DNA of 64,000 bases from Escherichia coli (GTDB taxonomy: Bacteria; Pseudomonadota; Gammaproteobacteria; Enterobacterales; Enterobacteriaceae). The stretch lies in assembly GCF_017348835.2 (NCBI RefSeq), contig NZ_CP072315.1. One strand, 5' to 3'. How positions within the stretch are numbered: the stretch's first letter is position 1; each line of letters starts with the position of its first letter. Made by a program: the position numbers and the translations under genes. Of the stretch, positions 1,391-32,064 are shown piece by piece. A model generated the notes under the pieces. That model did not search any database, had not been told where the DNA came from, and saw nothing but the letters and a program-made list of their open reading frames with translations.

Positions 1391-2263
1391 TTACTTGGCT
1401 TTCAATGTTTTTTCTGGGAAGCCTTTTTTACCGTATTCACCGGTAAAGAGGTAATAATCTTTTCCGTTGATGGAGGCTGCAACACCCCCTGGAGTTGTTG
1501 TATTTGGGCTATCAGAACGGAAAATGATACCCGAAAAATCAGCGCTTGTTTCGTTTCCTTTAAATGGGATGAACACATAACGAATTACAGCGTAATCACC
1601 AGCGGGAAGGTTTAGCTGAGGAATTTCGGTTCCTGTTGCGGGGCGAATCGCCTGAAAGCTGTACATTGAATCTGTAGGGAAAACATCAGCATCAGGCTTA
1701 GAGGGCAGATCACAGGTACTCCATTTATTGACGACTGCCATATCAATTTTACATGTGGCCAGAGCTGCTTTCTGTTTTTCAGGGTTGTATCCAAATGAGG
1801 CCTGAGTTGCTTTTGTATGCTCAAAAACATACTTAGCTCCTTCACGTACCAAACTTTCATCATTGTAAGGCAATTTTTTTGGATTGGGGACGAACACTAG
1901 GTATTGATTGACCTGGATGTATTCGGCGTCAGAAGAACTGTACAAAGAGCCGAGGCTCATGATCCCAAAACCTTTTAGACCGCCTGTTACGTAGCCCATC
2001 GAACTATTGATGAGATACTTAGAAAGAAAGTTGTCGGCATCCCCTCCAGGAGTAACCTCTTGCTCCTTAAAATTAACGTCGAAACCAGCAAACGAATAGG
2101 CATTCTTGGCGACAGAATCATTTGCTTTAGCATGCCAGTACTGGCCGTGACTGTACGCATTCAGAGCGGTGCCTGGCGTAGTGCCGGTGTCACCGGCACA
2201 ACCCGATAGGGAAAAACCAATGACGACAGAAGAGACCAGAGATACTAAACGTAAAAGTTTCAT
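1391..2263 (-). CDS. Lipoprotein of unknown function
   Basis: N-terminal signal peptide MKLLRLVSLVSSVVIGFSLSGC with lipobox LSGC; no recognisable catalytic motif. Confidence 0.6.
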   Translation of the reverse strand: MKLLRLVSLVSSVVIGFSLSGCAGDTGTTPGTALNAYSHGQYWHAKANDSVAKNAYSFAGFDVNFKEQEVTPGGDADNFLSKYLINSSMGYVTGGLKGFGIMSLGSLYSSSDAEYIQVNQYLVFVPNPKKLPYNDESLVREGAKYVFEHTKATQASFGYNPEKQKAALATCKIDMAVVNKWSTCDLPSKPDADVFPTDSMYSFQAIRPATGTEIPQLNLPAGDYAVIRYVFIPFKGNETSADFSGIIFRSDSPNTTTPGGVAASINGKDYYLFTGEYGKKGFPEKTLKAK

Positions 2264-2442
2264 TTAAAGCCCTTTTTGTAATGTCTTTTGGAGATGGAAC
2301 CATTATTCCATAGTCACGCGTTTCACAAACAACCTGATTGCATAAAAAAGGAAAAAAAGTGATTTCCAGTAGAACCAGCAGTACACAAGAAAAGCGCTTT
2401 TATAAAAATGTATAATTATTAAAACGAAGTAATGAGGTTGAA

Positions 2443-4227: not shown

Positions 4228-4621
4228 TTCGATATGGGCATTTACTTATGCTTAAAGCTATAGTATAAAAACAATGAGCTTAAATATCAGCTCCCAAATT
4301 TGAGTAACTTTGCTTAAAGTTACTTTCGCGTTAAGCGTTGATTTAGCCGTGAAAAGCGGCCAGCTTAAACAAGCTGTAAGACACCACCGGCAAAATGTCA
4401 CCTTTGTCGCTGGTGCACTTCCCATGCCTGAAAAAGGCAATCTGAATTTACCAAACCGTAACTAATTTAGCTCCTCCTGGAGCTATTTTTGTTGCGTACT
4501 TCTAATGCCAGATAGTATAAATCAGGCGGTTCATAGCTTACGGGAGATGAATGACAGGCTTTGCCTTCGTGTTGAAACAAAAAATTGTTTCTTCCTTCTT
4601 ACTATATATAGGTGACCCCAA

Positions 4622-5929: not shown

Positions 5930-5949
5930 CATTAAACCCACCCTAAAGG

Positions 5950-5980
5950 GGAGAAATCCCTTCATGGGATTTCTCCTTTT
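5950..5980 (+). terminator. Intergenic hairpin + U-tract (terminator/attenuator-like)
   Basis: GGAGAAATCCC-ttcat-GGGATTTCTCC then TTTT, immediately followed by GGAG and the ATG at 5990. Confidence 0.55.
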
Positions 5981-16063: not shown

Positions 16064-16084
16064 TTAAAATTATTTTCTCCCATA

Positions 16085-16111
16085 GGGATTTCTCCCTATG
16101 GGAGAAATCCC
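16085..16111 (+). other. Perfect 12-bp stem hairpin between array genes 2 and 3
   Basis: GGGATTTCTCCC-tat-GGGAGAAATCCC; no clear U-tract after it. Confidence 0.6.
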
Positions 16112-16131
16112 TCTATTAAGAGGGTATTGAA

Positions 16132-19224: not shown

Positions 19225-19249
19225 GGCACGGTTTCCGTGCCTTTTTTTT
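19225..19249 (+). terminator. Intrinsic terminator closing the paralogue array
   Basis: GGCACGG-ttt-CCGTGCC followed by an 8-T run. Confidence 0.7.
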
Positions 19250-19448: not shown

Positions 19449-19724
19449 ATGAATGAACTAAAATCCAAAAACGAGAACAGTACCAAAAGCAACTTTCCCC
19501 CGGTTGATAATCAGTTTTGCTTTTACCATGTTGATTTCAGCATAGAACGACTACTTTCTACGGCCGAGGATCTCCAGCTTGAGTACATCTTCCAGAAACC
19601 TGGAAGTGAAGTAAGAAAGGATTTGGTTGAGCGATTCGAACGTGGAGAGCGCTTTGTTACAGCTTCACACTGTGACAATTTCTGTGAAATCCTTGGTTGT
19701 CAAGGCCATCAGGAAAATGCATAA
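19449..19724 (+). CDS. Hypothetical protein (first gene of an eight-gene operon)
   Basis: Track start 19419 is TTG; ATG at 19449 is preceded by AAGGAGAG. Confidence 0.45.
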   Translation: MNELKSKNENSTKSNFPPVDNQFCFYHVDFSIERLLSTAEDLQLEYIFQKPGSEVRKDLVERFERGERFVTASHCDNFCEILGCQGHQENA

Positions 19725-19768
19725 ACCCATAAACCTACATTTCCACTTTTAAGGATGTTCACTAAAGA

Positions 19769-20359
19769 ATGATTGGAGAAAGTATTTTTGACTGGGTAAT
19801 TTACGGAATATCCATTTTGATATTTGCCTCAGCACTAATTGAAGGAAAGACAACTCGCTACCCAGCACTTTTTTTCTATGGGAGTTTAATTTTAATGTTA
19901 ATCCTGATAGTTGCTGGAGGCCTTAACTGGTGGTTCTACAGGTCAAAATATGGCGCAGTAATCGTTATCTTCACAGTGGTTTCTTTACTGATGACTCGAT
20001 TCCGCCTGGTCATATATAAATTAAGATTAAGAAAGTTAGTTTCAGAGATCAGATTTCGTATAAAAACGGGTTTTCGTATAATTCTTGTTTTGTCGGATAA
20101 TGAGGATGAGCGTAATGTTCTGCTGTCTATGCTTAGCAACGTATTGCCAGAGCAAACGCTTATTCACACGCGTGATGCTCTCGGACCTCATTCAGGGCCT
20201 ATCCTAAAAGCTCTTGAGCTACATCATCAACAGGGAACAGGTTACATACTCGTCTGTGAACAACAAATCTCAGCGCGTACGTGGTTGAGTATCGTAGAAA
20301 ATGGGAAACCTGATACATCTATAGCTGTTAATTTTCATTCGATCCCAGAAATGGAGTGA
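19769..20359 (+). CDS. Membrane protein (three N-terminal TM helices + cytoplasmic domain)
   Basis: Hydrophobic segments WVIYGISILIFASALI, LFFYGSLILMLILIVAGGL, AVIVIFTVVSLLM; tightly spaced after the previous gene. Confidence 0.5.
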   Translation: MIGESIFDWVIYGISILIFASALIEGKTTRYPALFFYGSLILMLILIVAGGLNWWFYRSKYGAVIVIFTVVSLLMTRFRLVIYKLRLRKLVSEIRFRIKTGFRIILVLSDNEDERNVLLSMLSNVLPEQTLIHTRDALGPHSGPILKALELHHQQGTGYILVCEQQISARTWLSIVENGKPDTSIAVNFHSIPEME

Positions 20360-20366
20360 TTTTTCA

Positions 20367-20624
20367 ATGAGTAGAACCGTTTCACAAAGTGTCACAGAAG
20401 ATTGTCTTTTTGATACCCGCACACAAGTCAGATTACAACTAAGTCGAAGCGTTCATAAAACGCTGGCATCTGCTAAAGAAATTTTACAGGGAAGGGGGGT
20501 TGATTCGGTCTCTATTGAAGATCTTGTGCGAGCCTGTCTTGAAGAGAACCAGCCAATTGATCTCGCCTCACTTTACCTTGAAAATCTCTTAAAACAGAAA
20601 GGTACCAGCATTTGCGATTTTTAG
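20367..20624 (+). CDS. Hypothetical small protein (85 aa), possibly DNA-binding
   Basis: 8-nt gap from upstream gene; weak ribbon-helix-helix-like impression only. Confidence 0.4.
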   Translation: MSRTVSQSVTEDCLFDTRTQVRLQLSRSVHKTLASAKEILQGRGVDSVSIEDLVRACLEENQPIDLASLYLENLLKQKGTSICDF

Positions 20625-20697
20625 TGTTTTCAAACCTATTAGATAAAATGCCGGTTGTGTTTATATAACATCAATAATTTCATGCAACAGGTAAAAC

Positions 20698-21234
20698 ATG
20701 AGTACTCAAAAGCAACTTTCCAGAACAACCGGCACTGAACGTATGTTTAAGGAAGAGCTGGCGTTATCCTTAATTTGTTGGGTTTTCACCAGTCCATTTA
20801 CCAACTGGACCGATAAAGTCTTCAGTGGTATTGAAGTTCCGTCTGAAGGACCGTCAACATTACTGGGTGAGGCTGAAAAATTCTTTCGTTTTGTCGTTAA
20901 TGAAGAAGGCTACGACGCAGGAAGGGCTGCTCTTGGTCTTGACCTATGTTGTTTTTCACTTCCGTCGTGTTTGTTCCCGGACGCTGCCCTGTCTGAGGAA
21001 GAGGTTATGAGTAAGTTAACCGGAGAAGTTATCCATGGGATTCTTCTTTCCTTACCTGAATTTATTGATATGCCAGAAGTGCTCGCTTACCAGGTCAGGG
21101 ATGAAATTCTTGCTTTTAACACTCGCTGTGGAGACGGGATCTTTCATGGTTGGAACACGGCTTCAGAATTGTGGAAGTTTGAAATCTTTCCCCGCACCAC
21201 CATCATGATGCAGCATACTTCGGCAATACATTAA
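20698..21234 (+). CDS. Hypothetical protein (178 aa)
   Basis: ORF in the same operon; no motif recognised. Confidence 0.45.
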   Translation: MSTQKQLSRTTGTERMFKEELALSLICWVFTSPFTNWTDKVFSGIEVPSEGPSTLLGEAEKFFRFVVNEEGYDAGRAALGLDLCCFSLPSCLFPDAALSEEEVMSKLTGEVIHGILLSLPEFIDMPEVLAYQVRDEILAFNTRCGDGIFHGWNTASELWKFEIFPRTTIMMQHTSAIH

Positions 21235-21250
21235 AATTAGGCGGGGCAGA

Positions 21251-21697
21251 ATGCATAAAAAACTTTTTCTTCTCGAATGGAAACCCTGTCAGAGCCGCGT
21301 ATGGGCCGGTTGGATGGCCCTGTGGTTGACTATCAGTTTTCTGATGTTATCTGCCTTGCTTATGACAGATCATCTCCTGAACAAAGTCATCCTGCCGCCA
21401 ACATGGTTGTTGATCTGGTTTTCGCCAATGCTGGGGTTTTTGATAAAAGTTCGCGTCGTCGAAACTCAACATTTCCTGGAGCATGACCTCTGTGTTGCAG
21501 GTTTCTCTTTTTACCGCTGGAAGAGGTTAGTTTCTCCCGGGCTTTGGTCAGTTGACTGTATAAATGGTCGTTTTCGCCTCAATCGGATCACCCAGGTGGG
21601 TAAGACTATCCACTATCCATGGCGTCTCCATTATCATCCTTTGTTCATGAGCCCTATCGAACATAAATCGCATGCTGTGAAAGCTGTTTCAAAATGA
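21251..21697 (+). CDS. Hypothetical membrane protein (148 aa)
   Basis: Hydrophobic segments (WMALWLTISFLMLSALLM; LPPTWLLIWFSPMLGFLI). Confidence 0.45.
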   Translation: MHKKLFLLEWKPCQSRVWAGWMALWLTISFLMLSALLMTDHLLNKVILPPTWLLIWFSPMLGFLIKVRVVETQHFLEHDLCVAGFSFYRWKRLVSPGLWSVDCINGRFRLNRITQVGKTIHYPWRLHYHPLFMSPIEHKSHAVKAVSK

Positions 21698-21769
21698 CTT
21701 CTTTAGAGGTTTACATGACATTTATGTTCTGCAAGGTCAGCCAGGGCAGCAAAATTGATTTGAAATAAC

Positions 21770-22750
21770 ATGAGCCTGGAGAAACGTATGAGTTATGACG
21801 ATTTGCCCTATTTTCGTGACCAGATTCTGGAACGTATCGACTCGCTTAAGTGTTTTCTTTCGAACACCCCCCCGCTGATGGCAAACCTGATGACTGTCTC
21901 CACCGTATCTCGAACAGAAGAGCGACTGAAGCAGGTTAAACCCATCAGGGTTAGTGTTAAAGACGATGCTTCGGTTGAGGAAATTATTCAGGCACTTACT
22001 GACATCTGTGTGGATGACATAGAGTCATTAAGTCATGATTCCACCAAAGTGACCACTAAATACCCGGGTCTTATCATTGTCCCAGAAAGAGCAGATCTTC
22101 TCGAAAGCTTGATCACATCTATAAATGAAGCAAAAAATGATTTTGCTGCGGCAATGAGGCGTATCGATAATAAAAAGAATGTCCGTTTTGATAAAGTGCA
22201 CAAGAAGCTCCCGGGCCTTGTCGCTATGCACTCAACAAGAAATGTCCTTTTCATCAAGTCCCAGCTTAAAAAAGTTACTTTTTCATGGCGGCTAAACCGA
22301 AACCAGGAAGTTAAAACAGCAGAGCAACTTGTGAGTTTGTTGGAGCGCAGGAGAGCCTCAGAAGTAAAAAATGTAGCAACTACCAATTTGAATGTCGTGT
22401 CTAATATCGATAAGGCTTTACACCGTCTTGAATTTCACCCACTGAAGCAGGGCGAATCTTATCGCCTTTGTCGAACTAACTCTTTCCCTGTTCCGATTGC
22501 TCACATTTTTGCATTTAGGCCTGAAGGGCAGGAACGAAACGGGAATAAATATGCTGAGACTGATTATTCAGTAGTAAAAGCATCCTTGCCCATTTTCGCA
22601 GCAGGCAACATACCTCAATTAAAAACGCTCTCTGACTGGGCTCCTGAAAACAGCCAGGGCCCGTCCAACCAACGGAAGCTGAGCCTGAAATATACAGAAC
22701 TCGTGCCGGGGGCTGAGCTGGGCATTTTCATTGTCAGCCCCGAAAATTAA
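21770..22750 (+). CDS. Tus-like protein (replication terminus-binding family), tentative
   Basis: VHKKLPGLVAMHSTRNVLF...VTFSWRLNRNQEVKTAEQLVSLLERR resembles my recollection of E. coli Tus [52 protein letters not shown]; similar length. Not verified by alignment. Confidence 0.45.
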   Translation: MSLEKRMSYDDLPYFRDQILERIDSLKCFLSNTPPLMANLMTVSTVSRTEERLKQVKPIRVSVKDDASVEEIIQALTDICVDDIESLSHDSTKVTTKYPGLIIVPERADLLESLITSINEAKNDFAAAMRRIDNKKNVRFDKVHKKLPGLVAMHSTRNVLFIKSQLKKVTFSWRLNRNQEVKTAEQLVSLLERRRASEVKNVATTNLNVVSNIDKALHRLEFHPLKQGESYRLCRTNSFPVPIAHIFAFRPEGQERNGNKYAETDYSVVKASLPIFAAGNIPQLKTLSDWAPENSQGPSNQRKLSLKYTELVPGAELGIFIVSPEN

Positions 22751-22759
22751 GGAACAACA

Positions 22760-23665
22760 ATGCAATGGATTTCCACAGCCAGCCAGAAAATCGATGAGCG
22801 TCTCTATCGTGTCTGCGTCTGGGTAAAAAAATATCACGCTGATGCGATTAACCGCGTTGTGCTTACCGTTGATCTAAGTAAAGCCCGACATGACCCTGAC
22901 GAGGACCAGGTAAGAGCAGAGCTGCTGTGCGGCCATTATTTTTTGCTTCGTAAGGAAAACGCTTCGAACTCTGCGCCTGACGATCAAAAGTTTGCTTTCC
23001 TGCCTGACGGGCGCAATCTGTGTTGGCAGACCGCAACCCCGGTGCTTCAGCATCTCCTGCTCAATAAAAACGTTCCTGAGTCGCTGAGGTTGCTTACGGA
23101 CTACATACATATGCGTCTGGCCAGGCTGACAATGGTACCAATGTCCGGAACCATCATGAACGAGGCTCTGCTGGACAGCATCAGCTGGGTTAAGGTGGAT
23201 TTGACCTACTTCTGGCAGTACGAACAGCTCAGCTCTCATCTGGGACCCATCCAGATAACCCACAAGGCACTAGTACGCTTCGGGCATCTGGCAAAGAATG
23301 ATGAAAACTCCAGTGCCATAAGAATCCTGCGTCAGCGTCTGTCTTCAGAATTCTTACAAGAATTTCAGATGGCTGAGGATGAGCTAAAGCGCAAACAGTC
23401 GTTGATGGGCACCATGGACGTGAAAATGCTGTTTCATGCTCATTACCCCAGCCAGAAGATGCTGGTGGCTCGATATAAAAATGGTTGGGTAATGGTGGAT
23501 TGTTTTCTGTTTCATCATACCAAACCTAAGAAAAAAGCAAAAAACAAAACTACTGTGGCTAAGCCTCAACTTAAAGAGACTAAAAGAGAAGGGAGTGAAA
23601 ATGGAACTGGGCATTATGGTGTGCATCGTGTTGTTACTCTCCGTGGCGGCGGCGTGGATCAGTAA
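22760..23665 (+). CDS. Hypothetical protein (301 aa)
   Basis: ORF 10 nt after the previous stop; no motif recognised. Confidence 0.45.
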   Translation: MQWISTASQKIDERLYRVCVWVKKYHADAINRVVLTVDLSKARHDPDEDQVRAELLCGHYFLLRKENASNSAPDDQKFAFLPDGRNLCWQTATPVLQHLLLNKNVPESLRLLTDYIHMRLARLTMVPMSGTIMNEALLDSISWVKVDLTYFWQYEQLSSHLGPIQITHKALVRFGHLAKNDENSSAIRILRQRLSSEFLQEFQMAEDELKRKQSLMGTMDVKMLFHAHYPSQKMLVARYKNGWVMVDCFLFHHTKPKKKAKNKTTVAKPQLKETKREGSENGTGHYGVHRVVTLRGGGVDQ

Positions 23666-23945
23666 TAAGACAGTTGATTTGCTCGAAAGATTCTATTTCA
23701 AGCGTCCGCTGAGCATGGAGTACGCGGCATGGCTACGTGTAATGTGTGCAGGCTTGTTATTGGTTTTTATTCAGGTTGCTCCACAATTTACACTTCTGTA
23801 TACCCTTAAACTTGTCACGCTTATTAATCTTGGAATCCAGACAATGAAATTAAATGGCGTGTACAAATATAAAAGAACGGGAATTTTGCCTCCGGGAGGG
23901 GCACTCTCTAATCTCACCAGACTTAACCCGTTCAAGAAAAAATAA
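23601..23945 (+). CDS. Small membrane protein (114 aa)
   Basis: ATG at 23601 with AAGGGAG RBS; overlaps the previous gene by 65 nt in another frame; two hydrophobic helices. Confidence 0.45.
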   Translation: MELGIMVCIVLLLSVAAAWISNKTVDLLERFYFKRPLSMEYAAWLRVMCAGLLLVFIQVAPQFTLLYTLKLVTLINLGIQTMKLNGVYKYKRTGILPPGGALSNLTRLNPFKKK

Positions 23946-23951
23946 AGTTAT

Positions 23952-23967
23952 GCGCCCGTGAGGGCGC
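23952..23967. terminator. Bidirectional hairpin between convergent genes
   Basis: GCGCCC-gtga-GGGCGC between the 23945 stop (+) and the 23967 stop (-). Confidence 0.5.
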
Positions 23968-25151
23968 TATTCATCAAAGGCATTTCGCATAAGCTTGATC
24001 ATTGCTTTTTTACCAGCTTCAATATTACGAATGTAGCGCATAACCATTTCTTCATTCGACCAGTTCCCCATTTCCATAATCTGTGGTAGCGAGTAACCTT
24101 CAATATTTAGCTGTATCGCTCCGCCTACACGAACGCTGTGCCCTGTCCAGTAACGAGTTTTAGTCTCATTTGGATAAAGCTCATTCCACATCTCTTTAAA
24201 TGCTCGTAAAAGGGAATTTTTGCTGAGCATACCGGCATCGTCCACAGTGTCTTCTTCATCTTCATCGTTCAGAAGACTTTGCTTAGCACGATAGGGTAGG
24301 TTATGCCTTTTAAGAAGTTCAGATAGCTCATTCCCCTTACTCCGAAGCTTCCAGCCGGGTGGCATATAGCCTGTATCATGGAAATTTACGGCCTGGAAAA
24401 GGAATTCATCCGGATGACTGTGCTGATCCATTTTCACGAGGTTCATCAATCTCAAGAGGCAGTTAGTTAACTGACGTGTCAGCCGGTAGGTAAGAAGTGT
24501 ACTAATGTTCGTTTTTGTACGGTATACCGTCAGGTTAAATTCACCGGTCATACTATCCAGAGACAGATCTTTCAGACGTATACGTCGAATTTCGGATGAA
24601 CGGAGCAGTGTTTCAAAGCCTGTCCAGATCAGGCACAGGTCACGAAGTTTACGAACTGAGTTTGTAGTACTGCGTAACTTTATCAGAGCCTTGAGATCGC
24701 CAATAAGAAAGGGAGTTGCCTGTTTAGTCGTCTTTCGCTTCCGGGCTTCCGATTGTTTTAAGGCTTCCAGCATGTACCATGCTTCAGACGTAATAATCCC
24801 GGGCAGGTTAAGCCCTTTTTTATGGATACTATTTAAGGCCTGAAGACAGCTGTTTATGCTGCTTCGTGACAATTTGCCTTCAAGATGCCCCATAAACGCA
24901 AGCAGAGCGTCCTCAGACACGGGGAGCGAACTTACTGGCCAGTCTGTATGCAACCGGGCATTCGCCAGATACCATTCGTTCCATACTCGTAGCCAGTGCA
25001 GATAGGTTTTAGCAGTGTTGTATCTCAGATGGGAAAAGTAACGGATCAAGCGTGAAAGCTGTTTATCATGGTTGCCGAACGTTTCCAGCTGCTGATGCAA
25101 TTCGCTTTCCGAAAACTGTCTGATCACTGATTGATTCTTCATCCTGCTCAC
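23967..25151 (-). CDS. Tyrosine site-specific recombinase (phage-integrase family)
   Basis: C-terminal catalytic signature HSVRVGGA (H-x-x-R) and the Tyr in MVMRYIRN; upstream Arg in LRSSEIRRIRLKDL. Confidence 0.8.
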   Translation of the reverse strand: MSRMKNQSVIRQFSESELHQQLETFGNHDKQLSRLIRYFSHLRYNTAKTYLHWLRVWNEWYLANARLHTDWPVSSLPVSEDALLAFMGHLEGKLSRSSINSCLQALNSIHKKGLNLPGIITSEAWYMLEALKQSEARKRKTTKQATPFLIGDLKALIKLRSTTNSVRKLRDLCLIWTGFETLLRSSEIRRIRLKDLSLDSMTGEFNLTVYRTKTNISTLLTYRLTRQLTNCLLRLMNLVKMDQHSHPDEFLFQAVNFHDTGYMPPGWKLRSKGNELSELLKRHNLPYRAKQSLLNDEDEEDTVDDAGMLSKNSLLRAFKEMWNELYPNETKTRYWTGHSVRVGGAIQLNIEGYSLPQIMEMGNWSNEEMVMRYIRNIEAGKKAMIKLMRNAFDE

Positions 25152-25312
25152 CGGGATACACTGGTTTTAATTACAGGTCATTTTAGCACTCATGTACCTG
25201 GTTATGAACAGGGTGGAAACAACGAAAAAGGTTGTGAAATCGTTAGGCTTAAGTGAAAAATGATATTAAGATTATCCCTGGCCAGTTGAGGCCTGTCTAA
25301 AGAAGGTTGATT

Positions 25313-25525
25313 ATGTCTGACACAAAGCAGTCTTATTTAATGAAATTCCGTAAGTGTAGTTCGTTCGAAACGCTCGAAAAAGTATTTGAAAGGTTATGTG
25401 AAAAAAACTCGGGTGTCGCCTCTCTTGAAATTTCTGGTGCTTATGATCATCGTAAAGCCGAACTGACAATGAAAAAGTTATATGACAAAGTTCCTGCGAG
25501 TGTGTGGACCTTTGTTCGCGAGTAA
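25313..25525 (+). CDS. hha: Hha/YmoA-family modulator (H-NS co-regulator)
   Basis: YLMKFRKCSSFETLEKVFE...YDHRKAELTMKKLYDKVPASVWTFVRE aligns by eye with E. coli Hha (YLMRLRRCQTIDTLERVIE...[26 protein letters not shown]). ATG at 25313 with GAAGG RBS. Confidence 0.8.
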   Translation: MSDTKQSYLMKFRKCSSFETLEKVFERLCEKNSGVASLEISGAYDHRKAELTMKKLYDKVPASVWTFVRE

Positions 25526-25885
25526 TTATTAATATTGGCACAACAAAAAGACTGTGCCTAGATTTGAAAATAGTTTATGCCCCTTTCGGGGCTAAAGGCA
25601 TTGTAATAGCCTGTCTTTTAAAGTTGTTTATTAAGTTCGGAGAAAAACTTTAATCATAAGCCAAGCCCACTGCTAAATACATCCGATATTCTCCTTCATT
25701 TTATTAGAAGTGATAAAAGTTACTTTACCTAAACTTCTCTCTCAATATTTGTAAGGCTCTCATTTGATTTTTGTCAAACATTAATCTGGAAGACGGAAAA
25801 ATCATTTCTTTTAATACGTTTTACAGAAATCCTCCTCCGTTATTTCGGATATAGTTTGAATCATTATCAAAAACGGGGTGCAGCC

Positions 25886-26968
25886 ATGCGTAAGAGTTAT
25901 ACATTTGGTATTCCATTTGGACTCCAGCGAGAATCAGGACTCTTTTTAGATATTACAGAGGTCAGCCGGGGTATTGACTGTAACTGCATCTGCCCCGCTT
26001 GCAAAACTGATCTGTTAGCAAAGCAGGGGGAGGTCAAGCTTTGGCATTTCTCACACAGTACAGCTGTAGCCGGTGACTGTGATGGTCTGATGGAAGCCAT
26101 CCGGGGAAAGATTATTGAAGTCATCAACGAGCACCAGGTTCTTGGTTTCCCAAATCTTCTCGCTGGCGACGATGGTGGGCCGGTTTCACTGAATGAGGTT
26201 AGTGGAAGCGGCAGTATGTTCGGAGGCACAGCTGATCTGTTCGTAAAGGTTAATGATTTATGTGTGGCCGTCTTTCTGGACAGGGATCGCAGCATTTCAG
26301 AGAAGTTAACCTTTGACCATCTTCATCCTTCCGAAAGAGTTGCCGCATTGCGTATCGATCTTCCTGATATTGAATATGAAATCAGTCAGGTGCAGCTCGG
26401 GCGACGTAAAACAACATACAGTGAGTGCATTGAAAGCCTGATCATTGATGAGACCAGTTCCCGGGAATGGCTATATCATCCATTAATGCATGAACTTGAA
26501 TCTGAACCTCTTCAGGAGTATCGGGGACGGGAGCCTTCAGAGGAAGGGCCTCTTCTTCAGCGCCTTGCTGACTGTAAGATGAAATTGCCTGATATCCTTC
26601 CGGGCAGTCATAACGCGCTAGTCAGGTTACAGCAGGATACGATTGTATGTCTGTGTCGGTTAACGGTTCGGGCTTATGACATCGCTCAGACCGATGAATT
26701 TCCTTTGTTCCTTCGCTATTTCAGGTTGCACTGCCTGGAAAACAGCGAACATGTCAGTTACGAAAGACTGATCTGCTGGCAGGAAATGATTTCAAAAACC
26801 CAGGAAGGCCAGTCCTTGACACAAAACGAACTTGAATATCTTCATGAGATTGTCCGCATCGCCTTTTACAATCACCGGCTTAACAATGTCAGTATTTCAG
26901 ATGTTAAAAACCATGACACTGGAAAGAAGAGCGGCAGGGTAGAGTCACAAAATTATTCACTTTTATAA
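25886..26968 (+). CDS. Zinc-finger protein, possibly CoiA-like nuclease family
   Basis: N-terminal CNCICPACKTDL...KLWHFSH (Cys cluster + HF[AS]H) recalls competence protein CoiA; otherwise unassigned. Track start 25856 is TTG; ATG at 25886. Confidence 0.4.
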   Translation: MRKSYTFGIPFGLQRESGLFLDITEVSRGIDCNCICPACKTDLLAKQGEVKLWHFSHSTAVAGDCDGLMEAIRGKIIEVINEHQVLGFPNLLAGDDGGPVSLNEVSGSGSMFGGTADLFVKVNDLCVAVFLDRDRSISEKLTFDHLHPSERVAALRIDLPDIEYEISQVQLGRRKTTYSECIESLIIDETSSREWLYHPLMHELESEPLQEYRGREPSEEGPLLQRLADCKMKLPDILPGSHNALVRLQQDTIVCLCRLTVRAYDIAQTDEFPLFLRYFRLHCLENSEHVSYERLICWQEMISKTQEGQSLTQNELEYLHEIVRIAFYNHRLNNVSISDVKNHDTGKKSGRVESQNYSLL

Positions 26969-27134: not shown

Positions 27135-28688
27135 TTAGTTTTCAACTAACTGAACGACGACCAGCCTGCCGCCTTCCTCCTTTGACAGAACAAACTGAGC
27201 GTTATTCGTCAGTTCAATTTTTTCCCCAATGGCAATCTGTCGTTTATCCGGTAATGACATAAGCCCATTTATGCCTTCATTTACTAACCACCACTGATCG
27301 TTATGGAAAACAAAATACCCAACTCGTTTCCTTTGTGCATCGGTTGTGCGCTCATTTGGCGCAATGAGGCGATTCACATGCCACGCATAGATTGACTGCC
27401 CGCTCCACACCATCAACCGGTGGTCGTCAGGACGATAACTGCCTTCCTTTCGGGATGAATATAAATTTAGAACCGGTAATTTACCCTTGTATGGCGTACC
27501 GCAGTAGGGACAAACCGGCTTTGTCTTACCTGAGAAAACGTACCATTTCTGTTCACACGCCTTGTTCTGGCAGGGCTGTATCAGATCGACTGTTTTAACC
27601 AGGGCACTTTCCCACTCATCGGCGGTCGGGCGTTTATTGGCATCGTGTAAGCCATCAATAAAGGCGCGTTCAAACAAAGGCGTCAAATAAGGGCCCATGA
27701 TGGTGTAAGGAATTTTCTCCGGGTCAGCCCAGGGCAGTGAAAAGGAGGATAGCTGACTGACTTTGACTGCATTGCTTTTGTCTGTCGGATGTTCAATGAA
27801 GAGTGCCTTCTCACCCATAGATAAGGTCTCATCACGTACTTCATCCGACATGTCATGTATTTTTCCGCCACGTAGCGGATGACGGAAGAACAGATACATG
27901 TAGATAAGCACCGACAGCGCATGACGGTCAGTAGAAATGCTTGGCAATACGCGGTTCGGATCCTCTTTGGAAAGATGGCTGGTTTTCACCACTTCCGGAG
28001 CGATAAAATCCGGGGTGCCCACGACGTCGGGAGGATACTTTCCAGGGACAACCAGGCCGTCTACGTCAATGATGCAGGCATGTCCCATTTCTGGATCGAT
28101 AAGCACGTTTTTATAGCTTAGATCGCTGTGACAGAGACCTGCCGCATGCATCCTTCTGACGGCTCTTGTTAGCAGCAGACAGACCTTGAGATAGGTAAGC
28201 GTATTGCCTCGTTCACGTGGGTCGAGAAATTTATTCTGGTTGCTGGCGCTGGCAAACCATTTGCCTTCCTTTTCACGGCCTTTTATGCCAAGAAAATCAT
28301 CGTTTTTAGAGCCGTATTTAAAGAAAAAGTAGCTTTTGTAGGTTGGAACCACGATGCCGATTTTATCCCCATGCTCAACAACGTGGGTCGGCCAGCAAAA
28401 CAGGTCCTTCCAGTATTCACCTCCGGACTGGCCAAAAATGTTTTGCCTGTAGCGTCCGGTGATCATATCAATCCGATCCCGGGCCTGCTCGTTCTGCGGT
28501 TTATGATAAAAAGCGACGACGTATGATTTATCAGGCGAGAAGTAAACATCCTTCATCGAGCCCGAACCAATTACCTCGTCAACATACTGGACTGTTTCGC
28601 CGTCCTTTGTTTTGCACGTAACAATATTTGCCATATTGATCACCGAAGAAGCGTATCCCTTACCACAACACCGCAATAGTGCGGTCAT
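27135..28688 (-). CDS. Ser/Thr protein kinase of the TerY-associated triad, with C-terminal zinc ribbon
   Basis: Catalytic loop CHSDLSYKNVLID, DFG-equivalent IIDVDG, later CQNKACEQ...CPYCGT; last gene of the TerY operon. Confidence 0.8.
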   Translation of the reverse strand: MTALLRCCGKGYASSVINMANIVTCKTKDGETVQYVDEVIGSGSMKDVYFSPDKSYVVAFYHKPQNEQARDRIDMITGRYRQNIFGQSGGEYWKDLFCWPTHVVEHGDKIGIVVPTYKSYFFFKYGSKNDDFLGIKGREKEGKWFASASNQNKFLDPRERGNTLTYLKVCLLLTRAVRRMHAAGLCHSDLSYKNVLIDPEMGHACIIDVDGLVVPGKYPPDVVGTPDFIAPEVVKTSHLSKEDPNRVLPSISTDRHALSVLIYMYLFFRHPLRGGKIHDMSDEVRDETLSMGEKALFIEHPTDKSNAVKVSQLSSFSLPWADPEKIPYTIMGPYLTPLFERAFIDGLHDANKRPTADEWESALVKTVDLIQPCQNKACEQKWYVFSGKTKPVCPYCGTPYKGKLPVLNLYSSRKEGSYRPDDHRLMVWSGQSIYAWHVNRLIAPNERTTDAQRKRVGYFVFHNDQWWLVNEGINGLMSLPDKRQIAIGEKIELTNNAQFVLSKEEGGRLVVVQLVEN

Positions 28689-30300
28689 CGTGGTTCCCTG
28701 TGGAGAAAAAGTTAAGCCAGTCGCCTAACCTCTCAGGCGCAATACTGGCGTCTGTAAGGACAGGGATGAGCTCATCAAGGAGACGGGTCCATTTTTCGTC
28801 ACTGCGAAGCCCGTTATCTGTCTCAAACAGAGGGTCTGATACGCCATCTGTCATGAGGATCAAGTGAGATACATCATTCCATTTACCCACGCTGATGCGG
28901 CCGCTAAACGAGGGGTCTGCGATAATGCTCTGGTCAAGAAAGCGGGTTTGTCCTGCGTATTCTCCGCTATCGGGATTTCCCAGTATCCTGACTTTACCGG
29001 AAGGGCTGTATGCACCTATCGCACCATCACCAAGCCAGAATGCAGCCGCAAACAGCTCGTTATCAGTTCGTAGCGCTACAGTTGCCAGTAGGGTTGTTGA
29101 ATAGGATTTCACAGGTTGTTCTGCACAAATGGCTTCGTTCTGGATACTGTTGACCGCGAGCGTAGCTGCCTGTTTAAAATGATGAAGCATGGCGTTTATG
29201 GTTGCCTGCTGATCGCTCCCTTCCCACGCCGTGATGTGCTGCTTTAGATGGACGCCTTTCAAACCACTGAGCTGATTGAAAAGGTAATCGCCAGCCGTTT
29301 GGACTGCAATCCGGGAGCCTTCCCGGGAATTTACCGCACTACCGGCCCCGTCTGCGACCAGCATGACAGACCATCCTGTTTCCTGGCAGTGGTTGATATA
29401 GAAGTCGTCATCTCTGAAGCTCCCGGCATGCTCATGAGATCGTCCCCGGCGACTGGCGGCAGCAATACGTATGTCACCCCTGACCAGGCCAGCAGCGTCC
29501 AGATGGGACTTAGGGTAGGAAGCGTCTGCTGGTGGCTCTACCACCTTCCACAGGCTTCTCGGATCGGGATTGACTATAAAAAGCTGTTTTGTTTCGCATT
29601 CGTCGTGCGAAGCGCATGACCAGAGTACTGAAAGCTCTATATCGCCGCTTTCGGTGGGTGTACCTGTCAGCAACTTATGCTCTTTGTCAAAGGTCAGGCC
29701 AATGTTCCTGGGAAAGACAACGTCCCTGACAGTAGCCTGCTGGCCCTCATCCAGAACTATAGCAACCGGCGAAGAGAAACGTTCGCCTGCGCGGGCGTTG
29801 GGAATAACTATTTTAGCTCTCGGGGGAACGGCAGGTGGCACAGCTAATCCGGCCCGCTGCTGGCCTGTCGGTATCTGCCCGGGTTTTAATACCAGGGAAG
29901 ACAGGTTTTCGTCTTCCCTCTGTGCTGGTTTATCAAATTCGTAATAAGGCATCAGCTTCCAGAACGGAGGATGAGGTTCATTTTCTGGCAGGGGTTGCAG
30001 TAATGGTGTATCGGTAGCGTCAATGCCCGGGTTATCAGCATCACTTACGACCGTTTGTTGCTGATCGGAAAGGCTGGATGCTGACGAGGGGGCGATCTCT
30101 GCGTCGTTATAACCTTCGCTAACCCGCGCAGATAAACCCTGTGCAAGGCTCTCAATCCGCTCTTTAAGCCGCATAATCTCTTCAGTAAGGGAAGGGTCGT
30201 GCGATAGAAGAAAAAGCCGCTCACCTTCTACAGGGTGGCCCAGCTCAGACAGCACTAAGCGGATAATCTTCTCTTCAAGTAAAACATTTTGCGACATCAA
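28660..30300 (-). CDS. PP2C-family Ser/Thr phosphatase of the TerY-associated triad
   Basis: Metal-binding motifs LVADGAGS and LILMTDGVSD; start ATG overlaps the upstream stop (ATGA). Confidence 0.8.
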   Translation of the reverse strand: MMSQNVLLEEKIIRLVLSELGHPVEGERLFLLSHDPSLTEEIMRLKERIESLAQGLSARVSEGYNDAEIAPSSASSLSDQQQTVVSDADNPGIDATDTPLLQPLPENEPHPPFWKLMPYYEFDKPAQREDENLSSLVLKPGQIPTGQQRAGLAVPPAVPPRAKIVIPNARAGERFSSPVAIVLDEGQQATVRDVVFPRNIGLTFDKEHKLLTGTPTESGDIELSVLWSCASHDECETKQLFIVNPDPRSLWKVVEPPADASYPKSHLDAAGLVRGDIRIAAASRRGRSHEHAGSFRDDDFYINHCQETGWSVMLVADGAGSAVNSREGSRIAVQTAGDYLFNQLSGLKGVHLKQHITAWEGSDQQATINAMLHHFKQAATLAVNSIQNEAICAEQPVKSYSTTLLATVALRTDNELFAAAFWLGDGAIGAYSPSGKVRILGNPDSGEYAGQTRFLDQSIIADPSFSGRISVGKWNDVSHLILMTDGVSDPLFETDNGLRSDEKWTRLLDELIPVLTDASIAPERLGDWLNFFSTGNHDDRTIAVLW

Positions 30301-31337
30301 CCTCTCCCTCTGTTTACGTCGAAGTTAGTGTTTCCGCCATCATTGCTGAATGACAGACCTGTTTCACACCACGGGCAGATCACGTCATCCGGGCCGTCAA
30401 TGCACAGCAATTTTCCGCATGAGCACAGGGCAAACGCACTGGCATTACCGCAGTGAGGGCAACCCGGTACGCCATGCAGTTCGCTGGTGTTTACCTGCAA
30501 ACCGGTAGCGGTGGCATCTGACCATGCAAAATAGTCTTCATCGATGGGATAGCATCCGGCAATATTAAAGCTGTTCAGGTTCAGGCTGAAATCGAGCCCG
30601 GAAATCCTTGCTGGTGGCCGTTCATACTTCATCAGATACGGACGACGGGTCTTGCTGCAACGGCCGGTAAGCGTAACGCAGTTTTCGTCGTACGCTTTTA
30701 CTGGCTCGTCCTTGGCCAGCCGGACTATGTATTCAGTCTGGCTGAGCTCAGGTTGTTTGTCGTCTCCGACGCTGCGGCTGTGCGCCGTAACCGAGGCTGT
30801 GATCCATTTGATGAAGCGGGTAAAGTCCCCTTCCTGAGACTCGGTGAACAGCATGACATTCTCTGTCAGTTGCCGCAGGGTATTCAGGTCCGCTGACGGC
30901 CCCAGGCCAACGGCAATGAGATTCACTTTACTCGCGTAGTGATCCTTCCAGCGCTTCACTTCTGCGGTTGTGTCGTCAGTCGGACGTCCGTCGGTAAGGA
31001 GATACACGACGGGTTTCCAGTCGCCTTTAGCCTCATGAGTGGTTTTTCTGACCTGGGTATCAATTTGTACGGTCAGCTCACGCAATGCGGCCCCAAGGCT
31101 CGTACCGCCGCCAACGGGAAGGCGGGGAGGGTAGAACGAGGCAATTTCGTGAAGAGGTACAATCGTACGGGCTACACCGGCAAATGCGATTACCGAAACC
31201 CAGGCTGTTTCAAGTGCGTGTGGATCCTTTCTTAAATCTCCGATGATCATTTGCAGACCATCAGTCATTTTTTTCAGGTTTTCACCAATCATGGACTCTG
31301 AACAGTCCAGGACAAAAAACACGGGAAGGCGTCTCAT
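30297..31337 (-). CDS. TerY-like vWA protein with C-terminal Cys-rich zinc-ribbon region
   Basis: MRRLPVFFVLDCSESM (MIDAS DxSxS), YLLTDGRPTDD; C-terminal CPHCG...CSCGKLLC...CPWCE. ATG at 31337 with GAGGAAAA RBS; the track's upstream extension lacks an RBS. Confidence 0.75.
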   Translation of the reverse strand: MRRLPVFFVLDCSESMIGENLKKMTDGLQMIIGDLRKDPHALETAWVSVIAFAGVARTIVPLHEIASFYPPRLPVGGGTSLGAALRELTVQIDTQVRKTTHEAKGDWKPVVYLLTDGRPTDDTTAEVKRWKDHYASKVNLIAVGLGPSADLNTLRQLTENVMLFTESQEGDFTRFIKWITASVTAHSRSVGDDKQPELSQTEYIVRLAKDEPVKAYDENCVTLTGRCSKTRRPYLMKYERPPARISGLDFSLNLNSFNIAGCYPIDEDYFAWSDATATGLQVNTSELHGVPGCPHCGNASAFALCSCGKLLCIDGPDDVICPWCETGLSFSNDGGNTNFDVNRGRG

Positions 31338-31422
31338 AATTTTCCTCGTACGGCTGGTACGGCCAGCAGAAAACGTTGCTGTACAGAAAGGTGCTGCCCG
31401 GAAAGCAGCACCTTTCTGTCTG

Positions 31423-32064
31423 TCAGAGCACCAGCTGGATTTCTGGTGGAGGAGGGGGAAGGGTATCAGTTCCGTTATTGATCCCCGCGCTTGTGCTGCC
31501 GGAAGACACGCTGGCCGATACCCATTTAAAGAAACCTGCAAACGCGGTTGAATCTAGCGTCTCCAAAGACACAACCTTATCGGTGAGCTGTTTTAAGTGC
31601 TCATGGCCTGCTTTAGGACCAACGGCGCAGGCAATGATGGATCCGAATCCCCGGCCGCGAATCGCTTTTACCGCTTCACCGTACGCCAGGGCATCAGAAG
31701 GGGTTCCATCAGTCATCAGGAATACCAGAGGACGCCAGTCTCCTTTTGTATCACCATCTGAGCGACGTACATCCCGTTCAACACACTGCATCAGACATTC
31801 AAGGGCAGCACCGGTGAACGTCCCGCCTGCGCTTGGCACAACGATGTCAGAAAAGTGGAAGTCTTCCAGCGGCGTGAGAGGAATGAACTCACGCGCCTCA
31901 TTGTCATAGGTGATAATGGAGATATGAACGCTTTCGAGGGCGTAGGGATCCTGGCGAAGAGCGCTAAGCATCGCCTGAATTCCAACGTTAACGGAATGGA
32001 TGGACTCACCGCGCATCGAGCCGGATGTGTCGATAACAAGGTAAACAGGCAGGCGGCGCATCAC
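31423..32064 (-). CDS. TerY-like vWA protein
   Basis: MMRRLPVYLVIDTSGSM and FLMTDGTPSD MIDAS motifs; ATGA overlap with terX stop. Confidence 0.8.
   Translation of the reverse strand: MMRRLPVYLVIDTSGSMRGESIHSVNVGIQAMLSALRQDPYALESVHISIITYDNEAREFIPLTPLEDFHFSDIVVPSAGGTFTGAALECLMQCVERDVRRSDGDTKGDWRPLVFLMTDGTPSDALAYGEAVKAIRGRGFGSIIACAVGPKAGHEHLKQLTDKVVSLETLDSTAFAGFFKWVSASVSSGSTSAGINNGTDTLPPPPPEIQLVL

Follow-up and report, generated by a model that had tools for sequence, protein, structure and literature searches.

Layout of the locus

The region under study belongs to a widespread IncHI2 resistance plasmid and lies in the first half of the window, by which we mean the whole 64,000-nucleotide stretch of DNA analysed. 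Its genes and features are listed below.

19225-19241: strong terminator
19449-23945, plus strand: eight closely spaced genes, from the annotation of an identical plasmid, convergent with the recombinase gene
21788-22750, plus strand: plasmid-encoded Tus-like (replication terminus-binding) protein, Pfam PF05472 Ter
23951-23966, no strand assigned: GC hairpin GCGCCC-GTGA-GGGCGC between the convergent genes, read directly from the sequence
23967-25142, minus strand: Cre-type tyrosine recombinase, 391 aa, from phmmer against PDB Cre, Pfam Phage_integrase and ortholog alignment
25159-25178, minus strand: predicted LexA (SOS) operator ACCTGTAATTAAAACCAGTG, from a LexA matrix and conservation
25180-25208, minus strand: predicted sigma-70 promoter of the recombinase gene, from a promoter scan
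25313-25525, plus strand: Hha/YmoA-family nucleoid-associated modulator, 70 aa, Pfam HHA, ortholog of R27 R0182
25531-25564, plus strand: imperfect dyad with three mismatches after the hha stop codon, the first of two hairpins in 25531-25592
25579-25592, plus strand: hairpin GCCCCTTTCGGGGC, after the hha stop codon
25886-26968, plus strand: CoiA_N-like protein, 360 aa from ATG, Pfam CoiA_N zinc ribbon

The three-gene arrangement described in an earlier note on this DNA, a recombinase, an Hha-family gene and a CoiA_N-like gene, is real, with every open reading frame where that note had placed it. The recombinase gene is, as the note also held, convergent with the eight tightly spaced plus-strand genes, which we infer would be transcribed as an operon. 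This run is bounded by the strong terminator on one side and by the hairpin at 23951-23966 on the other; the hairpin is common to the run and the recombinase gene, and its sequence suggests that it is probably a bidirectional terminator. The last three genes of the run encode the Tus-like protein, a 301-aa protein and a 114/116-aa membrane protein, the orthologs of R27 R0186, R0185 and R0184. The Tus-like protein matched Pfam PF05472 with E=4.6e-19 (69 bits, cut-off 22) and scored below the NCBIfam equivalog cut-offs. A solved-structure search returned no direct match to solved Tus for this protein and no match for its 301-aa neighbour, and E. coli-type Ter sites numbered 4 matches against 5.0 expected.

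The recombinase gene had been described as lying upstream of hha. The two genes do adjoin, but not in the sense of co-transcription: they are divergent and have a common 170-bp control region. The description of the backbone as AT-rich held, with 33-46% GC over positions 1-27 kb versus 49-56% over most of the adjacent ter region.

We compared 16 loci representing as many lineages; a contig scan for relatives returned only two Klebsiella loci, and diversity was sampled through a protein database and contig look-ups. The recombinase gene occupies the same place in the backbone of IncHI1, IncHI2, IncHI1B and related plasmids, beside Tus-like genes. The order Tus-like protein, protein of ~265-300 aa, protein of ~105-115 aa, recombinase is kept in most fetched lineages, with the exception of L013 and of the truncated L014. 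Of the 16 loci, 12 have an hha gene close to the recombinase; it is directly divergent in 11, a YeeR_C gene intervening in L012; beyond hha the content differs among lineages (IS1/mer, Tn3, Rep3 or YeeR_C). The best explanation of these observations is that the region belongs to the conserved maintenance backbone of IncHI plasmids. The 64-kb window holds no tRNA gene, PADLOC gave no match for five of the six proteins scanned, and PHROGs returned nothing beyond 'integrase'.

The recombinase is a Cre-type enzyme

The recombinase reading frame spans 23967-25151 on the minus strand (394 aa from GTG), and the ATG at 25142, giving 391 aa, is the start preferred by RefSeq and by ortholog alignment. 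Against PDB entries, Cre was the only solved-structure family matched (phmmer, E=2e-23), in two aligned stretches, residues 40-256 and 332-390, that cover both domains; the Pfam Phage_integrase score was 51 bits. The note's call of a tyrosine recombinase was confirmed at the level of the active site: R181, K210, H335, R338, W361 and Y370 align to Cre R173, K201, H289, R292, W315 and Y324, and the RTKT, GHSxRVG, GxW and RY motifs are retained. The hexad is invariant in four orthologs of 37-100% identity. Among phages, P1-type Cre alone matched the protein (26.6% identity over 81% of its length, tblastn), and its 391 residues fall within the 300-400 aa used as a length criterion for Cre-type enzymes. 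By these alignments the gene product is shown to be a Cre homologue with a complete catalytic hexad.

The divergent hha gene and the 360-aa protein

The Hha-family protein (72 aa from an alternative TTG start at 25307) matched Pfam PF05321 at 67.9 bits (cut-off 25) over profile positions 1-56 of 57, and the E. coli Hha structures 1JW2 and 4ICG over its full length with E=4e-16, in agreement with its earlier description as an Hha-family modulator. Its score of 75.6 bits against NCBIfam NF008191 (chromosomal Hha) is below the cut-off of 90, and we therefore classify it by profile score as a plasmid paralogue and not Hha proper. R27-encoded Hha acts with H-NS and represses conjugation at 37 °C (PMC2686267). 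The suggestion that Hha fits an H-NS-silenced, AT-rich backbone has a documented parallel in the Hha/H-NS link with the AT-rich backbone of R27 (PMC2686267); the product of the divergent hha gene may likewise be a standard Hha-family partner of H-NS that helps to silence the backbone. The two hairpins that follow its stop codon, at 25531-25564 and 25579-25592, are probably hha terminators.

The 360-aa protein (370 aa from an alternative TTG at 25856) comprises a CoiA_N-type zinc ribbon at about residues 30-60, a predicted restriction-endonuclease-like alpha/beta core at about 65-200 and a family-specific helical C-terminal half. The earlier label 'CoiA-like' was correct for a 27-residue stretch, residues 33-59 in the 360-aa numbering, which matched CoiA_N (PF25164) at 32.5 bits (cut-off 26.3); the same zinc ribbon was matched in 13 of 13 family members. 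It did not extend to the CoiA nuclease domain, since PF06054 matched none of the 13 members at E<=10 and none of 10 remote relatives at E<=0.01. No NCBIfam model matches the protein, and PADLOC gave one weak hit, CorA-like, E=0.0022, on the helical half. The canonical (D/E)xK motif is not conserved, D117 alone being near-invariant across the superfamily. Its predicted domains suggest that the protein probably binds or cuts DNA, and its gene is an accessory, not an obligate, part of the module.

A probable dimer-resolution role, by analogy with R27

The earlier note had proposed a multimer-resolution enzyme, and genetics in plasmid R27 now back this. A deletion of R27 R0183, the ortholog of the window gene, left the plasmid stable in wild type but easily lost once xerC, xerD or ftsK(ATPase) was mutated, from which its authors conclude that there are two redundant dimer-resolution systems (PMC11724359). 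Single and combined R0179-R0186 deletions in MG1655 gave no stability phenotype (PMC4853401), which agrees with that redundancy. The study of the R0183 deletion also reports an active xrs from the IncHI2 plasmid R478; it gives R0183 neither a target site nor a mode of regulation and does not mention LexA or SOS (PMC11724359). The published R27 xrs and the XerD arm TTATGTTAAAT were absent from the window and from all loci fetched. By analogy with R27, where alone function was tested, the window recombinase would resolve plasmid dimers, the transfer to IncHI2 resting on 63% identity and conserved synteny.

The note's other proposal was integration; on such a reading the enzyme would insert or excise the plasmid or a module at an att site, or fuse replicons, and would not resolve dimers. 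Names lean this way (Pfam 'Phage integrase', PHROG 1 'integrase' and the GO term 'DNA integration' attached by RefSeq), and Cre-type enzymes can integrate DNA as well as excise it. Differences in gene content beyond hha could be taken in the same sense, but IS elements and transposons explain them. The gene sits in the conserved IncHI backbone beside Tus-like genes and not at an island edge, there are no flanking direct or inverted repeats and no tRNA gene in the window, and the R27 phenotype, plasmid loss only with XerCD/FtsK disabled, fits dimer resolution. In this backbone we found nothing to favour integration, which we regard as very improbable.

A conserved predicted LexA operator at the recombinase promoter

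The predicted recombinase promoter has a -35 element TTCATA (25208-25203), a 17-nt spacer and an extended -10 TG-n-TAAAAT (25185-25180). One nucleotide beyond this -10 begins the predicted LexA operator, which ends 16 nt before the ATG, within the interval -200 to +40 of the start codon, and has its CTG-N10-CAG core at 25161-25176. The earlier note had missed this conserved element, the most informative feature of the locus.

Published LexA searches use the 20-bp consensus TACTG(TA)5CAGTA, the CTG-N10-CAG core and a heterology index <15 (PMC12211044, PMC8072944). The window box, which on the plus strand reads CTGGTTTTAATTACAG and fits CTGNNTNNNNNNNCAG, agrees with all of these; its approximate index is 9.0, against 6.7 in a sister IncHI2A lineage and 2.9-6.2 in three other lineages, within a functional range of 1.5-13 and under the cut-off of 15 (PMC8072944, PMC12211044). 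Our matrix was built from E. coli boxes and gives approximate scores and indices; it ranked an independently curated P1 LexA site first. At 15.3 bits the window box is the best match in the 64 kb (next 11.3). Shuffling the full 64 kb, however, yields maxima that average 13.3 and go up to 19.2, so that by this measure the box is not significant. The case rests on conservation across lineages.

In 15 of 16 lineages no other site in the entire 5-13 kb locus scores as high as the orthologous box, which lies 6-26 nt from the ATG and has 13.3-22.3 bits versus 5-12.6 for the next best. For the 80-nt upstream region, 15 of the 16 loci, as run, had scores that none of 500 shuffles attained; the exception, L009, is due solely to a miscalled start, which put its box beyond the stretch examined. 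Since the 16 loci share ancestry, counts such as 15/16 are not independent trials. The CTG and CAG triplets are conserved at 0.99 versus 0.46 for the flanks, the inner 10 bp are 89% A+T, and all 16 sequences are distinct. In an 11-lineage intergenic alignment the only conserved block is TGnTAnnAT, present in all 11, followed after 2 nt by CTG-N10-CAG. The Photorhabdus box (L007) is degenerate, with CTA for CTG and a score of 11.2. From this pattern of conservation, the recombinase promoter is probably under LexA/SOS control.

An ordinary, constitutively expressed resolvase would need no such control, the box being an irrelevant AT-rich dyad kept for promoter or 5'-UTR reasons. R27 microarrays gave R0183 a substantial signal of 1567-3694 arbitrary units without SOS induction (PMC7366339), which argues against tight repression, although array units are probe-dependent. 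The window box scores modestly, its Photorhabdus counterpart is degenerate, and Y-rec, as the R0183 product is called, suffices for R27 stability in xer and ftsK mutants. These mutants are themselves reportedly partly SOS-induced, however, and rescue under such conditions fits LexA control. A core conserved at 99% against 46% for the flanks, around 16 different inner sequences, is also hard to explain without a sequence-specific binder. We judge constitutive expression unlikely and favour LexA control.

The search for a recombination site

Lox-like sites are defined by inverted arms of 13-15 bp with at most two mismatches around an 8-bp spacer, within ~1 kb of the gene (PMC10250229). We scanned the surroundings of the gene in the window and the 16 loci for dyads with 13-15 bp arms, 6-10 bp spacers and up to three mismatches. 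Between 22900 and 27200 no lox-like dyad had two mismatches or fewer, and nine had three, versus 4.9 in shuffles. No recurrent lox-like site appeared at a consistent position across the 16 loci, and a relaxed search within 160 bp of the LexA box found nothing above shuffles. Inverted repeats around a 6-8 bp spacer, which the earlier note had proposed as a check, were thus not above chance near the gene in any of the 16 lineages. Because these searches presuppose dyad symmetry, a site that is asymmetric or far away would escape them. In 25100-25900, direct repeats or iterons amounted only to short chance pairs.

Two individual dyads were considered and rejected. The one at 25531-25564 has three mismatches, does no better than shuffled sequence and has no conserved counterpart in IncHI1. 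The other, a perfect 13-8-13 dyad, lies ~8 kb away at 16074-16107 and forms a nested GGGAGAAATCCC hairpin that precedes a start codon by 20 nt; a similar hairpin occurs at 5949-5977, and we read both as recurrent intergenic stem-loops.

The CTG-N10-CAG element is itself a dyad, and instead of a LexA box it might be a site for the recombinase itself (recombination core or autoregulatory operator) or for a different plasmid repressor. Cre-type targets usually adjoin the gene (PMC10250229), no other candidate was found, and in P1 no more than 30 bp separate loxP from a LexA site, so that the two functions can be closely linked. The conserved positions, however, are precisely those that LexA reads (CTG and CAG around 10 AT-rich bp, with TA flanks in many cases), and the core is fixed while the recombinases diverge to 37% identity, whereas a recombinase half-site should change along with its enzyme. 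Symmetry stops at 20 bp, too short for a 13-8-13 Cre-type site, and the best 13-bp arms match at 7-9 of 13 positions, equal to shuffles. Repressor operators typically sit right after the -10, as this element does, and the same matrix recovers a curated LexA site. We hold this reading to be quite improbable and retain the element as a predicted LexA operator.

A working model and its significance

We consider it likely that the locus encodes a Cre-type dimer resolvase in the IncHI backbone with a LexA-controlled promoter. The operator would cover the expected transcription start of the single recombinase promoter, so that in undamaged cells LexA would keep expression low. On RecA activation, by DNA damage, by unresolved dimers broken at division or possibly by incoming single-stranded DNA during conjugation, LexA would be cleaved and the recombinase made. 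The enzyme would then turn plasmid multimers into monomers independently of FtsK, as a plasmid-encoded pathway parallel to host XerCD/FtsK, which would act at a separate xrs elsewhere on the plasmid.

We further put forward, tentatively and at less than even odds, that this is SOS-gated backup dimer resolution: an enzyme held off by LexA, freed on XerCD/FtsK failure or DNA damage, acting on a target other than a lox palindrome and forming a conserved unit with the Tus-like protein, which would give the plasmid its own terminus region apart from xrs. RecA-driven multimerisation would peak when XerCD/FtsK fails or DNA is damaged, that is, when the recombinase would be released. If true, this would explain why an R0183 deletion is silent in wild type and plasmid-lethal in SOS-induced xer and ftsK mutants.

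In Salmonella, E. coli, Enterobacter and Klebsiella, plasmids of the IncHI1 and IncHI2 types are among the main vehicles of resistance to multiple drugs, colistin (mcr) and metals, and the exact sequence studied here is found in several hundred sequenced plasmids, so their stability is of practical interest. The 2025 study of R27 described two redundant dimer-resolution routes and left the plasmid-encoded one without a known site or regulation (PMC11724359). Were this route under LexA control, antibiotics that induce SOS, quinolones for instance, would actively turn on a function that stabilises the plasmid, and a maintenance function would join the SOS-tied activities of mobile elements beside integron integrases and prophage induction. 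Published tool-discovery pipelines would drop this Cre-type enzyme because it has no nearby palindromic site; once its target is found, the enzyme could serve as an additional orthogonal recombinase that uses an unusual site. The 360-aa protein points to a large family, with thousands of representatives, that combines a zinc ribbon with a predicted restriction-endonuclease-like fold and whose core has no Pfam model.

Comparison with known systems

The window Hha-family protein matches the Hha, YmoA and YdgT structures over its full length and conserves the DHR...AELTM...LYDK...P.SVW core. The 360-aa protein has the general layout of CoiA, a CoiA_N-type zinc ribbon followed by a domain with a predicted restriction-endonuclease-like fold, and NCBI labels some of its relatives 'CoiA family'. 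It differs in lacking a match to the CoiA nuclease model and a conserved (D/E)xK, in its unrelated helical C-terminal half and in its setting, a plasmid backbone, whereas CoiA serves competence.

In the IncHI1 plasmid R27 the ortholog of the recombinase is R0183 (Y-rec), at 63% identity. Its neighbours are the same on both sides (hha R0182; R0184-R0186, including the Tus-like gene), and promoter and LexA box are arranged alike, the box, AGCTGTAAATAAAAACAGTG, lying 16 nt from the ATG; it is in R27 that function was tested. XerCD, acting with FtsK at dif or plasmid xrs, performs the same task and is experimentally redundant with R27 Y-rec, but it is a host-encoded heterodimer that uses a 28-bp site and is activated by FtsK at the septum, unlike the plasmid-encoded recombinase.

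P1 Cre shares the identical catalytic hexad, including the Trp typical of Cre, and both enzymes serve a low-copy plasmid-form replicon, in which Cre resolves dimers. Cre is ~48 aa shorter, the stretch from the catalytic Lys to the HxxR motif being ~37 residues longer in the IncHI enzyme, and Cre has loxP whereas the IncHI recombinase has no 13-8-13 lox-like site within 1.5 kb. A curated LexA site is also present in the P1 cre/lox control region, but it is found ~370 bp upstream, where it is attributed to the leftward P2coi promoter, whereas the IncHI box is on the recombinase promoter itself; P1 cre is annotated as Dam-regulated.

The integron integrase IntI, also carried on mobile DNA, is reportedly a tyrosine recombinase with a LexA box across its promoter, which couples recombination to SOS. 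IntI belongs to another branch of tyrosine recombinases, acts on folded single-stranded attC and shuffles cassettes instead of resolving dimers; the IncHI recombinase would be, like IntI, a LexA-repressed tyrosine recombinase carried on mobile DNA.

Gene layout of the recombinase region

The window is IncHI2 plasmid backbone, and its segment 23500-27200 is 100% identical to several hundred PLSDB plasmids typed IncHI2A (Salmonella, E. coli, Enterobacter and others). The three open reading frames that an earlier note had singled out at 23967-26968 are all real and are already known backbone genes; the observation is confirmed and its interpretation partly supported. The features are as follows.

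19225-19241, strong terminator, one boundary of the eight-gene run
19449-23945, plus strand, eight tightly packed genes, convergent with the recombinase
21788-22750, plus strand, Tus-like protein, sixth of the eight genes (Pfam Ter, E=4.6e-19)
22760-23665, ortholog of R27 R0185, between the Tus-like gene and the recombinase
23601-23945, ortholog of R27 R0184, between the Tus-like gene and the recombinase
23951-23966, GC hairpin, other boundary of the eight-gene run
23967-25142, minus strand, recombinase, 391 aa when started at the ATG that RefSeq and orthologs favour (394 aa with an upstream GTG as start)
25178-25159, minus strand, predicted LexA box, ACCTGTAATTAAAACCAGTG
25313-25525, plus strand, Hha-family gene
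25886-26968, plus strand, CoiA_N-like gene, 360 aa

The proposed convergence of the recombinase with the eight-gene run holds, as does the AT-rich backbone (GC 33-46% over 1-27 kb). The recombinase is not upstream of hha as a co-transcribed gene would be, the two being divergent rather than tandem. Directly past the CoiA_N-like gene, at 27135-31541, the tellurite-resistance (ter) cluster opens with genes for a kinase-like protein (517 aa), a PP2C phosphatase (546 aa) and a VWA/TerY-C protein; its GC is markedly higher (49-56%).

A Cre-type recombinase in a conserved IncHI module

On sequence grounds, the recombinase is Cre-type. Among all solved structures it matches a single family, P1 Cre (E=2e-23), with both domains aligned and the LLRxxEI, RTKT, GHSxRVG, GxW and RY motifs kept. 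The catalytic hexad R181, K210, H335, R338, W361 and Y370 (391-aa numbering) aligns with Cre R173, K201, H289, R292, W315 and Y324, bearing out the tyrosine-recombinase call, and these residues are invariant across orthologs down to 37% identity. In the phage comparison, P1-type Cre was again the only match (26.6% identity over 81% of the recombinase). The Cre similarity of the R27 gene was already noted in the original R27 annotation (PMC4853401 supplement).

Relatives of the recombinase fall into three tiers: at least 95% identity (IncHI2), ~63% (IncHI1, pHCM1/R27) and ~37% (IncHI1B Klebsiella plasmids and others). We compared 16 loci, among them Photorhabdus, Citrobacter and a Rahnella-like contig, with recombinase identities of 37-100%. 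Most share the order Tus-like gene, 265-300-aa gene, 105-115-aa gene, convergent recombinase and divergent hha, which places the recombinase in a conserved IncHI module; the exceptions are L013, with phage-like neighbours, and L014, which is truncated. The L013 homolog (47% identity) adjoins genes for lysozyme, LysC and an rve fragment.

Within this order, the larger intervening gene (R0185 ortholog) travels with the Tus-like gene in most lineages, and the smaller (R0184 ortholog) is not the same protein across all of them. Neither matched anything in Pfam, NCBIfam, PHROGs, PADLOC or PDB. E. coli-type Ter sites are not above chance in the window, so any sites that the Tus-like protein does use must be unlike the chromosomal consensus.

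The Hha-family assignment is well supported (Pfam HHA, 67.9 bits; full-length alignment with Hha and YmoA structures, E=4e-16). The protein scores under the NCBIfam cut-off for chromosomal Hha and is therefore a plasmid paralogue. On R27, Hha (R0182) works together with H-NS in repressing conjugation at 37 °C (PMC2686267), and AT-rich DNA acquired horizontally is silenced by H-NS/Hha complexes (PMC2686267; PMC7366339).

The CoiA_N-like gene follows hha in 7 of the 16 loci, twice with one or two inserted genes between; elsewhere IS1/mer, Tn3, a Rep3 gene or a YeeR_C protein takes its place, marking it as an accessory gene. In the Raoultella plasmid L004, a highly repetitive stretch (3536-4309) lies between a RepB initiator gene and the CoiA_N-like gene; translated, this stretch yields PVYPPAMI / GRYRPRLPASGDTR units in tandem in two frames, so it probably represents iteron-like DNA and not a gene.

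The earlier "CoiA-like" label stood the HMM check for the CoiA_N zinc ribbon but not for the nuclease: the CoiA_N match is limited to residues 33-59 (32.5 bits against a cut-off of 26.3) and recurs in 13 of 13 members of the close family, whereas the CoiA nuclease domain was detected in none of the 13 at a limit as loose as E<=10. This family has few members, and these appear to occur only on contigs whose gene order is IncHI-like. Searching 1.84 billion representatives with a profile returned 4,805 relatives, many of them 270-320-aa proteins that share profile positions 8-210 and match only CoiA_N, DUF7828 and DUF7830. The protein therefore joins a zinc ribbon to a predicted restriction-endonuclease-like fold, an arrangement broadly like that of CoiA. 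Membership of the CoiA family is not established, and conservation of the canonical catalytic motif is lacking.

A probable role in dimer resolution

A role in dimer resolution has already been shown for the R27 ortholog R0183. The R0183 deletion plasmid is stable in wild-type E. coli but "readily lost" once xerC, xerD or ftsK(ATPase) is mutated, from which it was concluded that R27 has two redundant dimer-resolution systems, a self-encoded Y-recombinase and an FtsK-dependent XerCD site, xrs (PMC11724359, 2025). Because of this redundancy, single and combined deletions of R0179-R0186 showed no stability phenotype (PMC4853401). An xrs cloned from the IncHI2 plasmid R478 is also active (PMC11724359). 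The published xrs is absent from the window and from all loci searched, so the XerCD and Y-recombinase systems are physically separate.

We assign the window recombinase to dimer resolution by its orthology with R0183, whose genetics favour the multimer-resolution enzyme entertained in the earlier note. That note's other suggestion, an integration enzyme, is unsupported: the gene lies in the backbone, the window holds no tRNA gene and flanking repeats are lacking.

The 2025 R27 study reports no target site for the Y-recombinase (PMC11724359). Inverted repeats flanking a short spacer had been proposed as a check. By the criteria of published Cre-type pipelines (13-15 bp arms, <=2 mismatches, 8-bp spacer, within 1 kb; PMC10250229) there is no lox-like site near the recombinase, no dyad recurs at a consistent position across the 16 loci, and relaxed dyad searches around the recombinase promoter did not exceed shuffles. 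Two candidates, the local 25531-25564 dyad and a perfect 13-8-13 one at 16074-16107, fit a hairpin reading better.

The window backbone shows a strong enrichment of hairpin-forming sequences, with 20 dyads of the form 13-N(6-8)-13 (<=2 mismatches) in the whole window against 2.9 in shuffles. Nested perfect hairpins of inverted GGGAGAAATCCC motifs occur at 16074-16114 and 5949-5977. One contains the perfect dyad, TTTCTCCCATAGG-gatttctc-CCTATGGGAGAAA, which sits between genes, 20 nt ahead of a start codon, inside an array of paralogous ~300-aa hypothetical genes.

A predicted LexA operator at the recombinase promoter

Sequences upstream of the recombinase gene were aligned, first for four IncHI types and afterwards for eleven lineages. 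The sole conserved block comprises an extended -10 (TGnTAnnAT), 2 nt, and CTG-N10-CAG with an AT-rich interior. Predicted boxes and the LexA consensus are as follows.

IncHI1, AGCTGTAAATAAAAACAGTG
IncHI1B, TACTGGTTATAAAAACAGTA
Raoultella, TACTGTTTATAAAACCAGTA
LexA consensus (PMC8072944), TACTGTATATATATACAGTA

Scores are approximate, coming from an approximate weight matrix of 21 E. coli SOS boxes. The window box is the top match in 64 kb (15.3 bits; next best 11.3), a score that alone is not beyond shuffles of the window (maxima averaging 13.3 and reaching 19.2). Across the comparison set, 15 of 16 loci have the best match of the whole 5-13 kb locus 6-26 nt before the recombinase ATG (13.3-22.3 bits; next best 5-12.6), a count that includes L009 after correction of a miscalled start and, the loci being related by descent, does not represent independent trials. 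The Photorhabdus box is degenerate. For the 80-nt upstream region, 15 of 16 loci as run had no shuffle out of 500 that reached the observed score; L009 was the exception, only since its miscalled start left the box beyond the stretch under test. The 16 boxes all have different sequences, with CTG/CAG 0.99 conserved against 0.46 for the flanks and an inner 10 bp that is 89% A+T. At L013 170-215, the motif occurs in two overlapping copies, TGTAATAAATTACAGG twice, upstream of the recombinase-homolog start.

The window box also fits the pattern used in published searches, CTGNNTNNNNNNNCAG located between -200 and +40 relative to a start codon and with a heterology index <15 (PMC12211044); its index is 9.0 (approximate, from our own matrix). 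For functional Salmonella LexA boxes the index spans 1.5-13, and overlap with the transcription start is frequent (PMC8072944). In a sister IncHI2A lineage (L019 232-422, against window 25130-25320), the 190-bp recombinase-hha intergenic region carries two differences, both at the predicted operator, giving GACTGTAAATAAAACCAGTG (16.8 bits, index 6.7); this box is nearer consensus and may tune repression. We found no literature linking LexA or SOS to the recombinase gene. What is new, and testable, is the conserved predicted LexA operator.

Proposed SOS gating and comparison with phage P1

From the conserved predicted operator we propose a Cre-type dimer resolvase under SOS gating, with a target that is not lox-like. 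LexA would occupy the start of transcription at the one recombinase promoter, activation of RecA would lift repression, and the enzyme would then resolve plasmid multimers without FtsK. Hendricks et al. in 2000 reportedly found xer and dif mutants to be partly SOS-induced; this would account for the Y-recombinase sufficing in precisely such backgrounds. As a caveat to LexA repression, R27 arrays show appreciable R0183 signal without induction (PMC7366339).

Phage P1 served as an independent control: its curated LexA site, absent from the training list, ranked first in its region (18.4 bits). The site (NC_005856.1, 46-65) lies in the cre control region, ~30 bp from loxP, and is attributed in the P1 annotation to the leftward P2coi promoter. 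The first half of this P1 site is similar to the IncHI2 box (ACCTGTAAAT versus ACCTGTAATT).
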